Below, piece after piece: positions 16,938-59,362 of a stretch of DNA of 64,000 nt (within the stretch, counting starts at the first letter, position 1; every line of letters begins with the position of its first letter). The stretch lies in the IMG/VR virus record IMGVR_UViG_3300037483_001670, positions 118,424 through 182,423 of that record. The stretch is one strand, 5' to 3'. Made by a program: the position numbers and the translations under genes. The DNA is from a virus. The notes under the pieces are model-generated. The model ran no database searches. It had not been told where the DNA came from and saw only the letters and a program-made list of their open reading frames with translations.

Positions 16938-17480
16938 TCACCTCAATCCGGCGGGGCGCTCTTCGCCACCGCTGAAGCACTGGAGCATGCAATCCCCGCA
17001 GTAGCCGATCTTCCGACCGGTCACCAGCTCGGCAATGCTGTCGGCCGACCACTCGATCTGGTCGCGCGTACGATCTCGCCAAAGCCGCTGCCACGTGCGA
17101 TGCCGCTTCGTATCCTCGGGCGTGACCCACACGGGCGACCCGGTGCCTTGAGGTGGCGTCATCCAATGCGCCGGGTACGCATGATCGGCCGCGTGCCCGA
17201 ACTCGTGCGCGAGAATCGCCACGAGCGTCTGCACGGGCAGGGAGACGATGTCCGGCGCGTAGTACATGACGCGCCCGTCGTCGCGCGTCGCTGCGAAATG
17301 ACGGCCGTCGCAACCGGGCAACTTCGAGCCGCCTCGCCCCACCTTGGGATCGATGATGAACTTGATCTTCTTCAGACGATCGAGCTTCACGCCGGGCGCT
17401 GGCGAGTACGCCAGAAAAACGTCGCGCACCGCATCGAAATGCGGCTGGAGCACGGCGTAGACGATCTCCTCGAGCTTCAC
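16938..17480 (-). CDS. zincin-like metallopeptidase
   Basis: ILAHEFGHAAD (HExxH); GTGA coupling to endolysin. Confidence 0.7.
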   Translation of the reverse strand: MKLEEIVYAVLQPHFDAVRDVFLAYSPAPGVKLDRLKKIKFIIDPKVGRGGSKLPGCDGRHFAATRDDGRVMYYAPDIVSLPVQTLVAILAHEFGHAADHAYPAHWMTPPQGTGSPVWVTPEDTKRHRTWQRLWRDRTRDQIEWSADSIAELVTGRKIGYCGDCMLQCFSGGEERPAGLR

Positions 17481-18379
17481 ATCACCGGCCCTGCCCAGCC
17501 GTGCGCCTGAAACCACCCGGCACGATTCAGGACGTCGACCGAGTAGTCTCGCCCCGTCGTGTAGTAGTCGATGTCGAGGTTTGCGTTGAGGGCGCGCACC
17601 ACGTTGCCCCCACCGCAGTTGTACGCCGCGAGCGAGGCACGAAGGAGACCGAGGCCGCGAATGGCGGTGCGGTCGTGCATGAACTTCCACATCCCGTTGA
17701 GCACGCCCGCGCCGTAGCGAATGTTCGCGGCCGCGTCCTGCCAGTTACCCGTCCGCGCAAACTCGTGCGCGTCGAAGTCGATCTGGAGGAGTCCGCGGCC
17801 GTACCCGGTGTTGCCCGGCGGGAGCGCCGCTGTCCGGAACTTCGACGGGAATCGCCGCTTCGTGAAGTCCCCCGTACCGGTCGGACCGACAGGACGGAGC
17901 TGTAGGCCCCACCCGCTCTCCCGCGACCCGATCCCCGCAAGGACGCACGGCGCGACCCAGTCGTTGCTCGTGCGTCCCGCTGCGTCGACGACCAGATCGC
18001 GGTACTTCTCCGCCTGCTCGAGCTGGCGAATGAGCCCGGGCGAGTCGAGCTCGAAGGTCGTCGTCAGCACCGGATCGGTGTTGAGGAGACGGCTCCACGT
18101 AAGGGCCCCCACGATGCCGTCATCGGAGAGTTGGCACTCCGCTTGGAAATGCCGAACGGCCGCATCGGTCCCACGCCCGAAAAGCCCGTCCAGCTCGATC
18201 CGCATGCCGTGCTCGTTCAAGAGCCGCTGAAGCCGCTCGACGTCCGGACGAAGGTTCGGCGACGTATGGTCGTAGCCATCGAAGAGACGCAGCATCGGAA
18301 ATGCCTCCGTCCCGCCGCCGTTTGCCGCTCCGTCCCGCGGCGTGATCGGCGGCTCTTCCTCTGTCGCTTCGTCGACCAT
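17477..18379 (-). CDS. endolysin: peptidoglycan-binding domain + goose-type lysozyme (GH23)
   Basis: DVERLQRLL...LDGLFGRGTDAAVRHFQ...DGIVGALTW; GSRESG, GRGLLQID, AAYNCG, TTGRDYSVDVLNRA. Confidence 0.9.
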   Translation of the reverse strand: MVDEATEEEPPITPRDGAANGGGTEAFPMLRLFDGYDHTSPNLRPDVERLQRLLNEHGMRIELDGLFGRGTDAAVRHFQAECQLSDDGIVGALTWSRLLNTDPVLTTTFELDSPGLIRQLEQAEKYRDLVVDAAGRTSNDWVAPCVLAGIGSRESGWGLQLRPVGPTGTGDFTKRRFPSKFRTAALPPGNTGYGRGLLQIDFDAHEFARTGNWQDAAANIRYGAGVLNGMWKFMHDRTAIRGLGLLRASLAAYNCGGGNVVRALNANLDIDYYTTGRDYSVDVLNRAGWFQAHGWAGPVM

Positions 18380-22635: not shown

Positions 22636-22657
22636 GGGTGAGCGTGCGTGTCCCTAC

Positions 22658-22680
22658 GGACGACGCTCAGCTCGCAGTCC
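22658..22680 (-). promoter_or_regulatory. conserved hairpin element copy 1 (GGAC-x-CGAGCTGAGCG-x-GTCC)
   Basis: intergenic, 22 nt upstream of ATG; copies at 27293, 29064, 39311. Confidence 0.65.
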
Positions 22681-22735
22681 TGCCCCTCAGTCTAGCGGAA
22701 ATTTGGCCCGGGCGGCAAGTTGCCGGTGCCCGATG

Positions 22736-27273: not shown

Positions 27274-27292
27274 AGCTGAAACGTCTCCCTAC

Positions 27293-27315
27293 AGACGACG
27301 CTCAGCTCGCGGTCT
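27293..27315 (-). promoter_or_regulatory. conserved hairpin element copy 2
   Basis: AGAC-CGCGAGCTGAGCGTC-GTCT, compensatory A-T pair. Confidence 0.65.
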
Positions 27316-27463
27316 TACGCCCAAGGTACCCCAAACCGGGGGCCGCCGGCAACTCAGCGCTGGTTCGTGACCGTGACGAGCAGCAACGAGCCGTCCGCGG
27401 CGTTGATCGTGCCCGCCGCGATGGGCCGCGATGACGGTGACCGAGCCGCAACTGGGCTCTTTC

Positions 27464-29044: not shown

Positions 29045-29063
29045 GGGGCGCAGGCGTCCTTCC

Positions 29064-29089
29064 GGACCGCGCGCTCAGCTCGAGCGTCC
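29064..29089 (-). promoter_or_regulatory. conserved hairpin element copy 3
   Basis: GGAC-GCTCGAGCTGAGCGCGCG-GTCC. Confidence 0.6.
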
Positions 29090-29141
29090 TACCCCAGAGG
29101 ATACATGAGCCGGGGGCCAGGGCCAATCCCAAGCCGCAAAT

Positions 29142-35595: not shown

Positions 35596-35811
35596 CTACG
35601 TTCCTGCGGGCGGTCGCGCCATCACGACAAGCGCCGCCACCGGTCCCACGATCGCCCCCGTCACCGCGAACTCCTTGCCACCGAGCGCGTGCCCGAGAAA
35701 ATAGCCGGCGATCCCCGCCCCGACGATCGCGATGCTATGCGTCAGCGCGGGCGGCACCTCGGCCGGTGCGCCAACGCCCGCGGTGGGGCACATCATCGCC
35801 GGCCACTCCAT
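35596..35811 (-). CDS. small two-TM protein
   Basis: TGATG coupling; AGVGA motif. Confidence 0.6.
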   Translation of the reverse strand: MEWPAMMCPTAGVGAPAEVPPALTHSIAIVGAGIAGYFLGHALGGKEFAVTGAIVGPVAALVVMARPPAGT

Positions 35812-36659
35812 CAGCGCGCTCTCCTCCGCCTCTTCGTCGGATGGCCCGTCACGGTCCCCGCGAAGATCGCCGCGCCGACACCCACGAGCGCCGCGGCGAA
35901 GAAATACGCTGTCCACGATTTTGCGCCGCTCGCGTCGGCGGTGTCACCGACAGCCGGAATGCTCTGCTGAAACGCGACCGTGTACTGCGGGTTCGTCGCC
36001 GAGTACGCGTCGACAGTCGACCGCATCGGCACTTCCGCGCGCGTGTCGGGCACCGCCACCGTGCCGCCGTAGTACGCCGGCGTGACACCGTGCGGAGGCG
36101 GACCCGAGTCGCGCACTGGACCCACCGGCACTTGCAGCGAGCTGCCATCGCCCGGCTTCCGATCGCCACGAATGACGACGTAGGGGTTGTTGTGATCGTC
36201 GACCTGAAGCGGCCCGACGAGGCGCCCGCCGCGCTCGACGTACGCCATGCCGCCGCCAGGGACGACCACGACATCGGCCCCGCTCGGGAGATCGATGACC
36301 TCCTTGCTGACGGCGAATTGCACCTCGCGCGCGATGTAGCCGGGAAGGCTTGGATGGTCCGAGAAGACTCCCATCGTCTTGTGGACCGTTCCGGGCCGAC
36401 CCGATTCGTCGAAGATGCCGGAGCCGACGACGTCGTCGTCGCTCTCGATTTGCTGAACGTAGTCGTCGTGGCGCTCGCCCTGGTAGCTTTCAGGTACGGC
36501 GCCGAAACCTGCAACGGCTCGACCTTGGGACAAGCTCCACCTCTCTTCGATCACGGGGTTCAGCTGCCCGATGAGCGGCAACCGGCTGCTGATCGGGTCC
36601 TTGTTGACGAGACGCCCCGTGTAGGGCTGTCGACTGGGCAAATGGATGATACCGGGCAT
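35811..36659 (-). CDS. tail-anchored putative virion protein
   Basis: AGFGA, SGIFD, C-terminal TM, KRRRR. Confidence 0.75.
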   Translation of the reverse strand: MPGIIHLPSRQPYTGRLVNKDPISSRLPLIGQLNPVIEERWSLSQGRAVAGFGAVPESYQGERHDDYVQQIESDDDVVGSGIFDESGRPGTVHKTMGVFSDHPSLPGYIAREVQFAVSKEVIDLPSGADVVVVPGGGMAYVERGGRLVGPLQVDDHNNPYVVIRGDRKPGDGSSLQVPVGPVRDSGPPPHGVTPAYYGGTVAVPDTRAEVPMRSTVDAYSATNPQYTVAFQQSIPAVGDTADASGAKSWTAYFFAAALVGVGAAIFAGTVTGHPTKRRRRAR

Positions 36660-36660
36660 C

Positions 36661-37521
36661 CTACGCCGCCTTTCGCTTCTTTTTCGCCACGTAGTACGCA
36701 CCGCCGCCGATCGCGAGCGCCGCGACGCCGAGGGCGACGAAGAGACCGGTCTTGCTCGAGCTCGCCGGCTGCGTCATCGCGTACGTCGTCGTCACGGCCG
36801 CCGCAGGCGAGTCCATCTTCTTGATCTGAAGGAAGCCGGCCCCGGGCCGCACGACCTGCGGCGTGTAGTCGACCGCCGGCTTCGGCGTCTTCGACGGCTC
36901 CTCGAACGACTCCGGCCACTGCGTCGGATCCTCGCACACGCTCGGACGGGTCAGCCCCTTCGGCACCGGCGCGACATAGTTGCCCGAGGCATCCATCTCG
37001 AGCTTGCACATGTCGGTCATCCACTGGCTCTTGCCGAATGGTGGAATGCCCTTGGTGGGCACCATCGACTTCTCTTCGGCGATGAACCGCGGCCTGCTCG
37101 GTTCGAGACCCTTGTAGTTCAGGTACGCGACGGTCGCGTTGTAGGAGTTCTGTTCCGTGCACGGCCACGCCCGGTCCCAGGTGGTCATGCGCCCGTAGAT
37201 GCCGCAGTTCCCAACCACGCCGTTGACGGTGAGAGATGGCCCCTTCTCGAACCCGGCCGCGTCCCACGGGTTGGCGGGCGCGTCACCGAAGCCAGAAATC
37301 GCGCGCGCCTGGCGATCCGCCGTCCACGATGGGGGCACCACCTGCGGCACGACGTCCGACGCATAGACGCGCTGACCGAAGATGTCCCGGCCCACGCCCG
37401 CGTGACCGTCAATCCGACCCGCCACGGTCTTCGTGATGGGCTTTGGGCTCATGTCCGCCGAGTACCGACTCGTATCGGTTTGCGCCAACGATCCGAGCCC
37501 ACCAAAGATTCCGTTCGTCAT
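36661..37521 (-). CDS. tail-anchored putative virion protein (YSADM family)
   Basis: GIFGGLG, RYSADMSPKPITKT, SGFGD, TM, KKKRK. Confidence 0.75.
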   Translation of the reverse strand: MTNGIFGGLGSLAQTDTSRYSADMSPKPITKTVAGRIDGHAGVGRDIFGQRVYASDVVPQVVPPSWTADRQARAISGFGDAPANPWDAAGFEKGPSLTVNGVVGNCGIYGRMTTWDRAWPCTEQNSYNATVAYLNYKGLEPSRPRFIAEEKSMVPTKGIPPFGKSQWMTDMCKLEMDASGNYVAPVPKGLTRPSVCEDPTQWPESFEEPSKTPKPAVDYTPQVVRPGAGFLQIKKMDSPAAAVTTTYAMTQPASSSKTGLFVALGVAALAIGGGAYYVAKKKRKAA

Positions 37522-38635: not shown

Positions 38636-39298
38636 TCAGTCGAGTTTCATCTTCAAGAGCGTCTGGGCCCGCCCTGCGGCTTCCAGCTCGCGCGGCCCTG
38701 CGACGCCGTCGAGCAAAATCCATTTCTCACTTTTCGGCTCTTGCGCCGTGATCGCCACGTGCGAGAGCTTCCCCGGCGCGAATCCCATTGCGACGAGCGT
38801 GACGTTGCGGCCGATGGTGAGGCACATCGTCGCCGCCATCGTCGAGACGTCGTCACAGTCGACGACGGTCGAACCGTAGGCGTTGATCTCTTCGACCTGG
38901 CGCTGCGGGTCCTTCACCATCTCGACGTGCCGCGGATCGTTCGCGTACCGAAAGAGCGCGATGCCGGGCACCCAAGGACTCGGTTGCACGAACACGTTGC
39001 GAATCGCGAGGATTTCGCCGAGGTAGTCCTTCGGCTGCACGCCGCGCAGCGCCCACTCGGTGAACTGCCGCACCTCCATGGAGCGCTCGCCGCGCGCGCC
39101 GAGGGCCGCGTCCGCCATCTGTTTCAGCGTCGTCTCGGGTCCGCGAAACGGCCGCACGGTGTACGAGCTCGGCCGAAACGCGGCCTGCTCGGCCGCAAAC
39201 CCAAGGAACCCGCCGCCCACGCTCGCGCCGCCCGCCAAAGCTTGCGGCATGAGCGGCATCCCTGTGCGAGCGTTTTTCTCTACCAAGCTGAACGACAT
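38636..39298 (-). CDS. transglutaminase-fold cysteine protease (Cys-His-Asp)
   Basis: RYANDP..VE, VVDCDDVSTM (Cys), LSHVAI (His), WILLDG (Asp). Confidence 0.8.
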   Translation of the reverse strand: MSFSLVEKNARTGMPLMPQALAGGASVGGGFLGFAAEQAAFRPSSYTVRPFRGPETTLKQMADAALGARGERSMEVRQFTEWALRGVQPKDYLGEILAIRNVFVQPSPWVPGIALFRYANDPRHVEMVKDPQRQVEEINAYGSTVVDCDDVSTMAATMCLTIGRNVTLVAMGFAPGKLSHVAITAQEPKSEKWILLDGVAGPRELEAAGRAQTLLKMKLD

Positions 39299-39310
39299 GC
39301 GTGTCCCGTT

Positions 39311-39333
39311 GGACAACGCTCAGCTCGAGGTCC
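39311..39333 (-). promoter_or_regulatory. conserved hairpin element copy 4
   Basis: GGAC-CTCGAGCTGAGCGTT-GTCC, 12 nt upstream of protease ATG. Confidence 0.65.
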
Positions 39334-39411
39334 CAAAACAAGTCTACCGGACCCAGCCTGCGAGCACAAGTCGCCGGGAAGCTACCGAAAAACTGGCCCG
39401 GCCGGGAGCCC

Positions 39412-39948
39412 TCAACTGGCCTGCGCCGGCTCGACGAGCTTCTCGAGCTCGACCCAAACCTTCGCGGCATGCGACTCTACCAGCTCGGCGAGCTCCGCCG
39501 ATGGCTCCTTTTCCAAGAGGGCGTTGCGCACGATGTCCATCGCCTGCGACGCGCCCATCTCGACGAGCCGCTTGACGTTGTCGACCCCGATCGTTTCGGT
39601 GAACGCCCGCGCGATGCTCACCGGATCGTCCCCCTCGGGAACGGCGATCATGTGCTCGATGTAGCCCTCGAGCGCCTTGCCCATGAGCTCGACGGGCATG
39701 AGCTCGACGCCGAGCTGCACCCCGAACATGCCCAACATGGCCGACGCGGCGGCCTGAACGTGCGTCGGCATCATGTGGGGCGGGCACTTCGCCACCAAAG
39801 ATTGAGAGAACTCGATACGCAGCTGGGTTTCGCCGCCCGACGCGAACTCGATCCGGATGCGTTCGGCGTCGGCCGTTGCCGTCACCGTCGATTCTTCGTT
39901 CGTCAGTCTGAGCTCACCCGTCCACGGCTTCTTCTTTTTCGTTTCCAT
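39412..39948 (-). CDS. hypothetical protein
   Basis: 178 aa ORF, GGGAG RBS. Confidence 0.7.
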   Translation of the reverse strand: METKKKKPWTGELRLTNEESTVTATADAERIRIEFASGGETQLRIEFSQSLVAKCPPHMMPTHVQAAASAMLGMFGVQLGVELMPVELMGKALEGYIEHMIAVPEGDDPVSIARAFTETIGVDNVKRLVEMGASQAMDIVRNALLEKEPSAELAELVESHAAKVWVELEKLVEPAQAS

Positions 39949-56384: not shown

Positions 56385-57152
56385 ATGGCCAAGCTCACCA
56401 ACGTTCGCGAGCGCGTGCATCAGCCGTTTCGCGACAGTCTCGTCCGCACGAGCGGCTGGTTCGTCGGCAATCTGACGGACCGGACCGATCTCTTCACCCA
56501 GGCCGGCAAGGACGACGCGTCCACCAACCTGAAGAACGGCTCTACGCTTCCGTCCGACCAATCGATGGTCGTGCTGGCGTGCCGCGTCTTCTCGTGGTTC
56601 CGCCAGTCGATTCAGCGTTCGGCAACCACCATCGACGTCGGCAACGTGTGGTCGCCGGCGGATCGAAACGGCGATTTTGCCATCGCGGCTGCCAACTTCG
56701 GCACCGCGGGCGTGCTGCTCAATGGATCCACGGTGGGCGACGTCCACGACGTCTACCGTCTCCACTGGCAGTCGTCCGAGCAGCTCCTCTGGAGCTTCGG
56801 AGCCGGTGACAAGTTCTCGATCACCTCGATGCCCTCGGCGTACTTCCCGTACGGCGGCGGTCTCCATGGCGACATGGGCGGCGTGACCGACCTCATCCAC
56901 TGGAACAACGGCTTGCCGGACCACACCGGCATCCTGCGCCTCGCCCGCGCGATCCTCCTGCCCCCGCGGCAGAACATCAAGTGCCAGGCTCAAATCGTCG
57001 CGCTGCCGGACGGCGGCAACTCGGCGACCTTCGGCCTGACGCAGGGCGCGCGCAGCATGCTCTCGCTTACCTCCAACCTCAATGCGGTGGACGGCGTCGG
57101 CAAGAGCGTGTCGTTCACCTTCGACGGTCTCTTCTCCCGCGACGTTCAGTAG
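56385..57152 (+). CDS. major capsid protein candidate (single jelly-roll-like)
   Basis: 255 aa beta-rich, QPFRDS..LF...TNL...LPSDQSMVVLACRV...ILLPPRQNIKCQAQI...VSFTFDG; flanked by stem-loop and terminator; follows core protein. Confidence 0.6.
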   Translation: MAKLTNVRERVHQPFRDSLVRTSGWFVGNLTDRTDLFTQAGKDDASTNLKNGSTLPSDQSMVVLACRVFSWFRQSIQRSATTIDVGNVWSPADRNGDFAIAAANFGTAGVLLNGSTVGDVHDVYRLHWQSSEQLLWSFGAGDKFSITSMPSAYFPYGGGLHGDMGGVTDLIHWNNGLPDHTGILRLARAILLPPRQNIKCQAQIVALPDGGNSATFGLTQGARSMLSLTSNLNAVDGVGKSVSFTFDGLFSRDVQ

Positions 57153-57331: not shown

Positions 57332-58438
57332 ATGTCACAAGGTATGCCGGGCGCAGTCAATATCGGTCCGCAGCTCTCGCAGTTCGCGCAGCAGATGCGT
57401 TCGGAGGTTCAGGGAGTTCTGAACAACCATGCGCAGTGGGTGCGCAAGGCCACCGCAGAGCAGCTCGGTGTCTTCGACGCGAGGCTCGGTGAGCTCTCCA
57501 AGATCGCGCAGGCCCTAGCGGCGACGCGCGCAGGGGGCGAGGGCATCAACTGGGAGCGTCGAACCGATCGCGGCATCGTCCGCATCGAGGACATTCCAGG
57601 ACGGCGGGTACCGTTCACGCTGCTGATGGACATCCCCATCGGCAACAACACGACCTCGCAGCGCGAGCAGTCGGTGACGATTTCGCAGGAGGGTCCGTTC
57701 GTCGCCGTGAAGCGCATGGCGACGTTCCAGTCGAGCCTCCAGTTTCAGGTGACGTCGGGCTCTGCAACGGCGATCTTCGCCGGCCGATCGTTCGGACGCT
57801 ACCGGCCCATTCATTCGGCCTGGGATATCTTCGACGCGCATGGGCAGGCGGGCTACGACGGTTCGCTGGTCTTCCGCGATCTCGTGCGGTCCGCCGGCGC
57901 GATCGATCTCTCGCAGCCGATCAGCGGCACGCCCGCAGGCACTGCGCCCTTCCCGGTCATCCTGGGAGCGCCTCCCATCGTGTCGGCGGTTTCGAACTTT
58001 CGCACCATGGAGTTCGACGGTCGCATCCTCGTCATCAACGCGGGCTCGAGCTACCCGAGGCAGAACATCTCGGTGCCGAGCTCGATGTGGAGCCCGCAGA
58101 TCAACGCACCGCAGGAGCTCGGGGCCCTCGACTTCTTCGAGCGCGGCGAGATCATCACCGTGCAGGTGCAGCCGAACCACGTCAACAACCCCCCGGCGGG
58201 CAACGCGAACGGCAACACGCTCTTCAACCTGGGCGCGGCCGCAACGCCGTTCCCGTTCGAGAATGGGCAGTACGACCCGCACGAAGGGATCGCGACGCTC
58301 TCGGGGCTCACGGTTACCGCGGTCGGTCCGCGCCAGGTGGGGGGGCTCGCCACCGACATCATCCAGCGTCTGCCGGACGGTATCCTTACCATCGGCTGGG
58401 AAGGCTACCGAATCATTCAGCCGGTCGGGCCGGTCTAG
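57332..58438 (+). CDS. second capsid/penton candidate (jelly-roll-like)
   Basis: SVTISQEGPFVAVKR...GRILVINAGSSYPRQN...IITVQV...LTIGWEGYR. Confidence 0.55.
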   Translation: MSQGMPGAVNIGPQLSQFAQQMRSEVQGVLNNHAQWVRKATAEQLGVFDARLGELSKIAQALAATRAGGEGINWERRTDRGIVRIEDIPGRRVPFTLLMDIPIGNNTTSQREQSVTISQEGPFVAVKRMATFQSSLQFQVTSGSATAIFAGRSFGRYRPIHSAWDIFDAHGQAGYDGSLVFRDLVRSAGAIDLSQPISGTPAGTAPFPVILGAPPIVSAVSNFRTMEFDGRILVINAGSSYPRQNISVPSSMWSPQINAPQELGALDFFERGEIITVQVQPNHVNNPPAGNANGNTLFNLGAAATPFPFENGQYDPHEGIATLSGLTVTAVGPRQVGGLATDIIQRLPDGILTIGWEGYRIIQPVGPV

Positions 58439-58441
58439 CCT

Positions 58442-59362
58442 ATGTCTGGTGGTATGAACCGCCAAGACGCTCTCAAGCTGCTCAAAGATTTTGGGCGGAC
58501 GGGGGGCCTGGGTGCGGCGCCCGAGTTGGCGCCGCAACAGGGCCCTCCTGCGCCCGCTCCGAACGCAATGACGCCCGCTCCGCTGAAGCCTGCGCCTGCC
58601 GTTGTGTTCGCTCCCGCTCCGGGTCCGCCCTCTGCGGCGAACGCGGGGGAGCTCGCTGGTCAGACGGTGGGGCCGCCCGGGATGGGCGTTCCGCCGACCG
58701 ACGTGCACCAGGCTGGTGGCGAGCTCCTCGCGCGCCTTCAGCATCCGGAGTTCCAGACGATGGAGGAGCTCTACCGGATCCTTCCGGAGGACAGCTGGTT
58801 TCAGCCGAGCGTTTCGCCGGGCAACCCGATCCAGTTCGAGCTCGGCTCCTTCACTGTGCCAAACAGCCAGCATTACTGGCTCTTCGACTACGAATTTTCG
58901 ATCTTCCGTTTCAGCGGCCTCGACGCCGGCGACATCCTGAAGTCCGAAGCGGGGCGCTACTCCGGCGTCATGGGCTTCGACGTCACGATCGACGGACGTC
59001 GGCCGTCGCACTTGCTCTACCAGCTCGATCCGCAGCCGGCACAGCTTCAGCGCCAGACGTTCATTTCGTTCAACGCGCAGGGCGGCACCAACAACAACAG
59101 CGCGTTCAACCGATCGACGGCGCAGAGCTTTGCGGCGACCGCGTCGCAGGGCACCTCGGTCTTGCCGGTGCGCCGCGCGATGCAGGGGCCGGAGGGGATG
59201 CCGTTCACGTTCATCGCGAGGCAGCAAGCGAAGGTGTCGCTCTCCATCATCATCTTCAAGCGGGTGCTGACGCCGATCGCGGCCGTCGAGGGGCGGCACG
59301 CTGGGTACCTGCTTCAGTCGAGTCTCGCCGAATCGCTCATCCTTCGCATGAGGCCGAGGTAA
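58442..59362 (+). CDS. third capsid-like protein, Pro/Ala-rich N-arm + beta-sandwich
   Basis: IQFELGSFTVPNSQHYWLFDYEFSI...FTFIA...VSLSIIIF. Confidence 0.55.
   Translation: MSGGMNRQDALKLLKDFGRTGGLGAAPELAPQQGPPAPAPNAMTPAPLKPAPAVVFAPAPGPPSAANAGELAGQTVGPPGMGVPPTDVHQAGGELLARLQHPEFQTMEELYRILPEDSWFQPSVSPGNPIQFELGSFTVPNSQHYWLFDYEFSIFRFSGLDAGDILKSEAGRYSGVMGFDVTIDGRRPSHLLYQLDPQPAQLQRQTFISFNAQGGTNNNSAFNRSTAQSFAATASQGTSVLPVRRAMQGPEGMPFTFIARQQAKVSLSIIIFKRVLTPIAAVEGRHAGYLLQSSLAESLILRMRPR

Follow-up and report, generated by a model that had tools for sequence, protein, structure and literature searches.

A minus-strand gene at positions 38636-39298 of the window analysed here (64,000 nucleotides, corresponding to positions 118,424 to 182,423 of the IMG/VR virus record IMGVR_UViG_3300037483_001670) encodes an enzyme belonging both to the transglutaminase-like superfamily and to the lineage of gp34 from SSIP-1 (Salisaeta icosahedral phage 1). 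Judging from sequence comparison it is the likely counterpart of gp34 in a large clade of uncultured, apparently tailless bacterial viruses with genomes of 100-180 kb, and the data support the assignment of its gene to a conserved block of late/particle genes. In what is close to an even call, we tentatively read this enzyme as a late, particle-associated cysteine protease of transglutaminase fold, which would process particle proteins bearing short glycine-containing tags. Below we present the gene and its fold, the kinship with SSIP-1, the locus and the tags, weighing in each place the alternative functions on which the given evidence bears.

The gene and its catalytic triad

The open reading frame (ORF) extends from the ATG at 39298 to the TGA at 38636-38638, encodes 220 aa and lies within an unbroken series of minus-strand genes, the surrounding sequence having 65% GC. 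The existence of a gene at this place, proposed earlier in a sequence-only reading of the window, is confirmed by third-position GC (GC3) of 0.85 and by at least 293 close homologues (55-79% identity), all of them unnamed metagenomic proteins, some located on contigs of up to 183 kb; a chance ORF or pseudogene is ruled out by GC3 and by the number of homologues. A TTG six codons 5′ of the ATG gives a 226-aa version, which was used for alignment A1 and for the structure model (Cys148 is Cys154 in its numbering), and close homologues begin at the same Met-Ser-Phe/Tyr. The gene is single-copy in the whole record. Its product is soluble, being devoid of a membrane helix (maximum 19-residue hydropathy 1.27), and neither a signal peptide nor a hydrophobic N-terminus was found in it.

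The same reading had described an intact DCDD / SHV / LD triad, and all three motifs were located in the gene (Table 1), with the catalytic residues spaced as Cys-32-His-17-Asp. Asp-Cys-Asp, His and Asp are invariant among 37 aligned relatives (alignment A1; 51-79% identity), while down to approximately 26% identity His is invariant and Cys and Asp are at least 90% conserved (alignments A2 and A6). The family as a whole is large, amounting to 343 clusters at 50% identity in the full HMMER scan of 1.8 billion representatives.

Conservation of the active site is underlined by inteins. Of the 150 cluster representatives listed, 12 contain an insert 120-330 residues long, and several of these inserts match Hint, intein-splicing and LAGLIDADG endonuclease families, the set comprising mini-inteins of about 120 aa and full inteins of about 300 aa with LAGLIDADG homing endonuclease. 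In every case checked the N-extein ends with Val/Gly-Asp, the insert starts with Cys and ends with His-Asn, Ser-Asn or Ser-Gln, and the catalytic Cys is the +1 residue directly after the intein, meaning that insertions exactly at the catalytic Cys are found in at least 12 lineages. Inteins typically occupy the most conserved catalytic sites of indispensable genes, and their location here supports the essential character of the Cys site. To our knowledge, the enzyme was not previously listed among intein host proteins.

Transglutaminase fold

The fold assigned in the sequence-only reading was confirmed by three independent routes, that is, by structure matches, by Foldseek and by Pfam Transglut_core (PF01841), matched by 43 of the 52 distant phmmer homologues with best E of 5e-16. 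The AlphaFold2 model of the enzyme has a predicted local distance difference test score (pLDDT) of 82.8, with residues 56-226 mostly above 85; in the 226-aa numbering Cys is placed at the start of helix 154-167, His and Asp on strands 186-192 and 199-202. Exhaustive structural comparison with 48,161 solved chains returned transglutaminase-like proteins in all top 35 positions, among them 3kd4 (Z 13.2), TG2 (10.8), factor XIII (10.7), 3isr (9.8), PNGase (9.1), LapG (8.8), PeiP (8.3; 8.1-8.3 for PeiW/PeiP) and CPR-C4 (8.0), and the same transglutaminase-like set is given by Foldseek. In the ESM Atlas the enzyme adjoins viral clusters, some members of which carry Transglut_core or Peptidase_C93.

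By sequence the relation is revealed through distant members and profiles. Direct Pfam scan of the enzyme yielded a chance-level DUF6244 match only and no other domain or repeat even at E up to 10, PHROGs gave no match for the enzyme or for the 52 homologues, and PDB sequence search with the close-family profile produced chance matches only. A few of the 52 distant homologues match DUF553, Rad4 or Peptidase_C93, the latter being absent from the enzyme itself and detected in 1 of 52 homologues at E 0.0023. With the broader family profile, PNGase and 3isr are recovered from PDB at E about 0.015 (0.016 for 3isr), and Cys, His and Asp of the enzyme align with the catalytic residues of mouse PNGase and 3isr.

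In a true transglutaminase, Cys would take up a glutamine side chain, or else a tag, as acyl-enzyme, with lysine or an amine lipid as the acceptor; particle proteins would thereby be cross-linked or fixed to the internal membrane, stabilizing capsid or membrane. Such a function is suggested by the high rank of TG2, factor XIII and TG3 in the structural comparison (Z 10.0-10.8; some 155 residues matched, the helical region ahead of Cys among them), by the position of the enzyme gene among those for membrane and spike proteins and by conservation resembling that of a core morphogenetic gene. Nevertheless, we find it quite unlikely, since the closest structure, 3kd4, as well as 3isr, LapG and CPR-C4 are proteases or putative proteases, and most microbial Transglut_core proteins are reportedly thought to be hydrolases. 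Animal transglutaminases, moreover, need a Trp for transamidation, and there is no invariant Trp among the conserved columns of A1. The location of most tags at the extreme N-terminus (see below) also speaks against transfer, as the acyl-enzyme would then hold only a short leader peptide.

Kinship with SSIP-1 gp34

SSIP-1 is a membrane-containing phage cultured on Salisaeta sp. SP9-1, and its gp34 (304 aa, AFJ21489) is annotated as "structural protein" in GenBank JN880423, with no function assigned in this record. The protein matches Transglut_core above the Pfam cut-off (29.6 versus 23 bits). Comparison of gp34 with the family profile by hhalign gave a probability of 92.8% (E 3.8e-7); the match covers 132 columns, from the Thr-Leu...Met helix ahead of Cys to the Asp strand, and brings Asp-Cys-Asp, His and Asp into register. 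In addition, phmmer matches the window enzyme to gp34 at 6.7e-7. The best viral structural match of the model is BFVD entry I1ZBG7 (304 aa, E 5e-8, root-mean-square deviation 2.5 Å), which, judged from its length, is probably gp34 itself. In tblastn against 50,697 GenBank phage records no match was obtained for the enzyme, SSIP-1 being reached only by profile comparison. The enzyme and the SLT lysin are the only window proteins that match SSIP-1 by sequence, and no match to the SSIP-1 gp40 ATPase was found in four genomes. The enzyme is the best sequence marker linking the large viruses (136-182 kb) to SSIP-1, whose genome is 44 kb in size. Gene order is alike as well: in SSIP-1 the coiled-coil-like ORF33 is followed by gp34 and by ORF35 with a membrane helix at 169-194 of 211 aa.

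The two proteins differ in their termini, gp34 having a C-terminal extension with membrane anchor at 282-300, as opposed to the soluble window enzyme of 220 aa. Several distant homologues also possess a C-terminal anchor, and the family thus has soluble and anchored forms. An N-terminal enzyme domain combined with a C-terminal membrane anchor, as in gp34 and many distant relatives, corresponds to the architecture that the PRD1 entry transglycosylase P7 is reported to have, and in view of PeiW and PeiP among the matches of the model (Z 8.1-8.3; found also by Foldseek) one might assume a particle-borne or lysis-associated cell-wall peptidase, cutting peptide cross-links of the host wall at entry or release in the manner of the pseudomurein endoisopeptidases of archaeal viruses. 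This appears unlikely for the window enzyme, which has no wall-binding domain, signal peptide or anchor and belongs to a virus already encoding a lysin with PG_binding_1 and SLT domains (17477-18379). Phage enzymes that cut cell walls are as a rule modular and swapped among relatives, whereas this gene occurs one-to-one, keeps its synteny and equals the capsid candidate in conservation; PeiW/PeiP also match the structure less well than 3kd4 and the animal enzymes do, and we know of no transglutaminase-core enzyme that cuts bacterial murein.

A conserved block of late and particle genes

According to the sequence-only reading the gene lies between coiled-coil genes and a tail-anchored cluster, and this position proved to be conserved in 20 of 20 loci of the synteny set, composed of IMG/VR contigs (25-144 kb) that encode a relative of the enzyme. 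In all of them the block includes, in order, the 315-aa gene, the coiled-coil gene, the enzyme, the 35811-type protein and the genes 34896, 31489 and 30546. In the window the four genes 3′ of the enzyme end in a membrane helix and a basic tail, and the first of them begins 18 nt past the enzyme stop behind an AAGGAG ribosome site, from which we conclude that the enzyme and the tail-anchored proteins are encoded in a common operon. The 35811 orthologue follows the enzyme gene within 0-50 nt in 8 of the 15 loci examined. Across related genomes identity of the enzyme is 42-63%, equal to or higher than that of its neighbours. Upstream, the 897-aa protein, which may serve as a scaffold or size-determining protein, has a head rich in Pro, followed by a long charged coiled coil, a stretch rich in Pro, Gln and Ala, and finally a globular tail.

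Linkage to the core and capsid genes, which the same reading had proposed to check, was borne out: five of five complete genomes (136-144 kb; three with terminal repeats) encode the enzyme along with the capsid candidate (368 aa) and the core protein, which is protamine-like, and the enzyme is present in 11 of 12 contigs bearing the capsid candidate, the exception being cut 1.5 kb from its capsid gene. A lack of such linkage, which that reading would have taken as a refutation, is therefore not what these counts show. No match to Peptidase_C5 (PF00770), S78, C48 (PF02902) or S49 was found in the whole record, so no rival protease is seen there, which we count in favour of a protease. The prohead protease context of tailed phages was ruled out, with no S78, S49 or HK97 capsid detected in the whole record and no Terminase_6N in the record or in three complete relatives.

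The record itself, of which the window is the last 64 kb, has 182,423 bases and an estimated completeness of 73%; relatives with complete genomes measure 136-144 kb and carry direct terminal repeats. Among 186k species genomes scanned the enzyme gene was found only in two contigs of metagenome-assembled genomes (MAGs), which argues that the family belongs to free viruses. These contigs, L032 (CAUJHX010000182.1, 122.7 kb) and L033 (CAYNRE010000031.1, 48 kb), are binned as Pseudomonadota and Pirellulales, respectively, and are probably viral contigs caught in bins, so the host hints that they give are weak and conflicting. The PG_binding_1 and SLT lysin gene mentioned above indicates a bacterial host. 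Scans of viral contigs with the distant homologues P0170 and P0141 as queries returned no relatives.

On the plus strand of the window the most conserved gene of the capsid arm (56385-57152) encodes a protein of 255 aa with 57-81% identity across relatives. It is followed by the capsid candidate (57332-58438, plus strand), for which at least 676 homologues are known and no match was obtained by tblastn against the 50,697 GenBank phage records. Best beta-sandwich matches of its model (PHM, Z 6.4; PBCV-1 capsid protein, 6.2; SPV1, 5.7) are below the noise level stated for the tool and may at most hint at a jelly-roll fold.

Table 1. Features of the enzyme gene, its surroundings and related tagged proteins in the window
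Feature	Position	Strand	Description
Variable leader, residues 1-54	39137-39298	minus	pLDDT 48-65; Met-Ser-Phe start; Phe-Arg-Gly-Pro is the entry to the folded domain
Asp-Cys-Asp-Asp motif	38849-38860	minus	Read from sequence
Catalytic Cys148 codon	38855-38857	minus	Invariant in A1; aligns with catalytic Cys of PNGase and 3isr and with Asp-Cys-Asp of SSIP-1 gp34
Intein site in homologues	38855-38857		P0121, P0122, P0128, P0132, P0133, P0143, P0149, P0161, P0169, P0185, P0220, P0244
Ser-His-Val motif	38756-38764	minus	Read from sequence
His180 codon	38759-38761	minus	Invariant in A1, A2 and A6; aligns with catalytic His of PNGase
Leu-Asp motif	38708-38713	minus	Read from sequence
Asp197 codon	38708-38710	minus	Invariant in A1 and A2, at least 90% in A6; aligns with catalytic Asp of PNGase
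Conserved upstream element	39303-39334	minus	GGAC, spacer, 11-mer core 39317-39327, spacer, GTCC, GGGAC Shine-Dalgarno-like box directly before ATG
Four element sites	22640-22700, 27275-27335, 29048-29108, 39293-39353	minus	Before the 199-aa gene, two spike paralogues and the enzyme gene
Coiled-coil, Pro-rich protein, 897 aa	39965-42658	minus	Conserved upstream neighbour, 20/20 loci; no Pfam or PHROG match
178-aa gene between coiled-coil gene and enzyme	39412-39948	minus	GC3 0.87; no homologue in 20 loci
First tail-anchored protein, 163 aa	38127-38618	minus	C-terminal membrane helix; N-terminus Met-Asn-Gly-Met-Gly
Second tail-anchored protein, 200 aa	37518-38120	minus	C-terminal hydrophobic helix
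Third tail-anchored protein	36661-37521	minus	Gly-Leu-Gly 8 residues past likely Met start
Fourth tail-anchored protein	35811-36659	minus	Most conserved partner; homologue in 19/20 loci; family orthologues L001, L004, L008, L013, L016, L017, L018, L020
Protein after capsid candidate	58442-59362	plus	Orthologues keeping the tag: L021, L024, L034, L037, L038, L045

The enzyme gene is preceded by a conserved element of about 35 nt, which it shares with two spike genes. Of the five exact copies of its 11-mer found in the window, four precede minus-strand genes, and in one copy of the element the inverted repeat is changed on both arms (AGAC...GTCT). The hairpin assumed in the sequence-only reading was only partially upheld: the element is conserved and repeated, but RNA folding of the four sites shows no excess over shuffles (z = 0.17, -1.0, 1.1 and 0.26), and an RNA hairpin upstream of the enzyme was therefore rejected. 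We read the motif as a shared upstream regulatory element with a ribosome-binding box and, as excess folding energy is lacking, favour a late promoter or operator over a hairpin.

These data bear on one more alternative, according to which the enzyme would be a host-directed effector, a cysteine protease or deamidase acting on host proteins during takeover and unrelated to the particle. The bacterial effectors SpvD, OspI, SseI and RavJ, which have related papain-like folds, do appear low in the structural list (Z 3.9-6.4); however, they match much more weakly than the core transglutaminase-like proteins, a structural role is annotated for gp34 of SSIP-1, and the gene is embedded in the late block of membrane-protein and spike genes and has its upstream element in common with the latter, which makes an effector highly improbable.

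Glycine-containing tags and possible maturation pathway

A pentapeptide of the form hydrophobic-x-Gly-hydrophobic-Gly occurs 19 times in 36 late proteins versus 5.2 +/- 2.3 in residue shuffles, the enrichment being 3.7-fold, and none of 2000 shuffles reached 19. Many of these tags are located within 5-25 residues of the likely start, as in the four spikes and in the genes 18384, 32611, 36661 and 38618, and the 163-aa tail-anchored protein has them at residues 1, 88 and 129 (positions 36, 123 and 164 of the longer ORF). The tag is conserved in orthologues of two unrelated families of late proteins. In the first of them, the 35811 protein, nine orthologues of 30-39% identity show no deviation from Gly-Arg-x3-Gly-x-Gly at residues 46-53, after which comes a linker of varying length; in the second, encoded directly after the capsid candidate at 58442-59362 (plus strand), Ile/Val-x-Gly-Leu/Met-Gly is kept about 15-25 residues from the start within differing flanks. 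Besides the tag, another block is conserved in the 35811 family (Asp-Asp-Val-x-Gly-x-Gly-x-Phe-Asp ... Gly-Val-Phe ... His ... Pro-Gly), and the 58442-59362 protein continues with a Pro-rich linker and a conserved domain. In SSIP-1, Gly-Leu/Met-Gly motifs are found at positions 17-36 of gp37, gp53, ORF36 and ORF52, and tag variants of other lineages include Asp-Phe-Gly and Arg-Gly-Leu-Gly. The enzyme has a leader of its own, variable and disordered: an aromatic/Leu-Leu-Gly motif is present there in 80 of 94 homologues, in 69 exactly 9 residues before the folded domain, and in the window enzyme Gly-Phe-Leu-Gly is found at residues 30-33 (39200-39211), 17 residues before the domain. Complex prediction for the enzyme domain with a 110-residue N-terminal piece of the 35811 protein, tag included, made without controls, scored 0.00 and was not used as evidence.

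Assuming that the tags and the enzyme belong together, the following course of events may be envisaged. The enzyme would be made late, together with spike and membrane proteins, and recruited to assembling particles, where its Cys would cut Gly-containing tags, namely N-terminal leaders of 5-25 residues on several proteins and linker sites on others, the targets being membrane, spike and capsid-arm proteins. It would probably trim its own leader as well, and the outcome would be maturation or processing of the particle, the enzyme working like adenain from a different protein family. The maturation protease suggested in the sequence-only reading is partly supported, namely by the fold, the triad, the late block, the co-occurrence and the gp34 homology, cleavage itself being conjectural. 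Somewhat more doubtful is the generalization that the whole clade of membrane-containing, apparently tailless viruses, from SSIP-1 with 44 kb to the 182-kb record, matures its particles via a transglutaminase-fold protease reading the hydrophobic-x-Gly-hydrophobic-Gly code on at least a dozen unrelated particle proteins including itself, as a convergent counterpart of adenain on a different fold. In a bolder variant an amine would resolve the acyl-enzyme, resulting in sortase-like fixing of proteins to the internal membrane or to each other.

The same tags are compatible with a docking signal, and one might suppose that the enzyme recognizes them without being primarily a cutter, as an assembly or sorting factor or as an acyl/amide modifier of particle proteins (deamidase, N-acyltransferase or PNGase-like amidase). 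The match list does include PNGase, arylamine N-acetyltransferases, protein-glutaminase and the catalytically inactive Rad4/XPC, all of the same fold. We regard this as improbable, because a mere binder would neither keep Cys, His and Asp invariant over 343 clusters nor attract inteins to the catalytic Cys, and no glycosylation or acyl-donor genes are seen beside the enzyme gene.

Several points weigh against the maturation protease that we nonetheless tentatively prefer. Transamidation, deamidation, acyl transfer and isopeptide cleavage are supported by the same fold, which alone cannot separate them, and the tags might serve sorting or docking without ever being cut. The number of independent cases is lowered by the four of the 19 tags that belong to paralogous spikes, and the enzyme's own Phe-Leu-Gly tag deviates from the exact pentapeptide pattern. 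The tail anchor of SSIP-1 gp34 and of many distant relatives is also compatible with an entry enzyme. That the neighbours encode particle proteins rests on the gp34 homology and on gene features, and the model of the capsid candidate is poor (pLDDT 57). Proteolysis, its substrates, packaging and late expression of the enzyme are all inferred here from the genes.

Comparison with known systems

We know of no particle maturation protease in membrane-containing tailless phages (PRD1, PM2, sphaerolipoviruses and SSIP-1), and in the library searched neither SSIP-1 nor the maturation of phage capsids was connected by any paper with a transglutaminase-like enzyme; for such an enzyme in icosahedral virions with an internal membrane, none of the papers listed by the search was relevant. 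What the present case adds is the gp34 homology test, the co-occurrence counts, the intein at the catalytic Cys and the tag on a capsid-arm protein. The earlier statement that PRD1-like phages do not encode such an enzyme needs qualifying, since the membrane-containing SSIP-1 carries a homologue. If the proposed maturation is true, bacterial viruses and adenoviruses would have come independently to proteolytic processing guided by a short Gly-rich site code, a functional handle would be provided for a very large and wholly uncultured virus group with hundreds of homologue clusters, and the question would be directly testable in the one cultured relative, SSIP-1, via gp34.

Among enzymes of the same fold, the best structural matches (3kd4, 3isr, TG2 and factor XIII) have 8-13% identity with the window enzyme. 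Of these, 3kd4 (BDI_1141) and 3isr are "putative proteases" of unknown function from Bacteroidota structural genomics, and the animal TG2 and factor XIII are multi-domain, calcium-activated cross-linkers. PeiW and PeiP (Peptidase C71) of the methanogen viruses psiM2 and psiM100 are likewise virus-encoded and combine the transglutaminase fold with a Cys-His-Asp triad, but the similarity is confined to the catalytic domain: they carry N-terminal wall-binding repeats and lyse archaeal hosts, whereas the window enzyme is devoid of repeats, has a bacterial host and is encoded in a morphogenesis block. LapG (BTLCP, Peptidase_C93), a calcium-dependent periplasmic protease that removes an N-terminal module at a short small-residue motif, belongs to the same superfamily and resembles the enzyme in acidic residues beside Cys; it differs in that the window enzyme has neither signal peptide nor periplasmic context and its family is viral.

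The proteases of adenovirus, poxvirus and African swine fever virus (ASFV), with which the enzyme was initially compared, have the adenain/Ulp1 fold and the catalytic order His-Asp/Glu-Cys (His-Glu-Cys in adenain). This parallel is retained as an analogy of proposed function and abandoned as relatedness: here Cys-His-Asp is carried by a transglutaminase core instead of His-Glu-Cys on an Ulp1-like fold, no clan CE structures are present in the structural match lists of the enzyme, and membership in the adenain/Ulp1 clan (C5, C48, C57 and C63) is ruled out by fold, by catalytic order and by the lack of PF00770 or PF02902 matches in the record. The likeness would lie in the logic, with one packaged cysteine protease acting on many precursors of particle and core proteins at a short Gly-containing consensus. 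Adenain (AVP, MEROPS C5, clan CE) cuts at (Met/Ile/Leu)-x-Gly-x-Gly and (Met/Ile/Leu)-x-Gly-Gly-x, and the tag enriched in the late proteins of the window, hydrophobic-x-Gly-hydrophobic-Gly, fits the first of these consensus sites.

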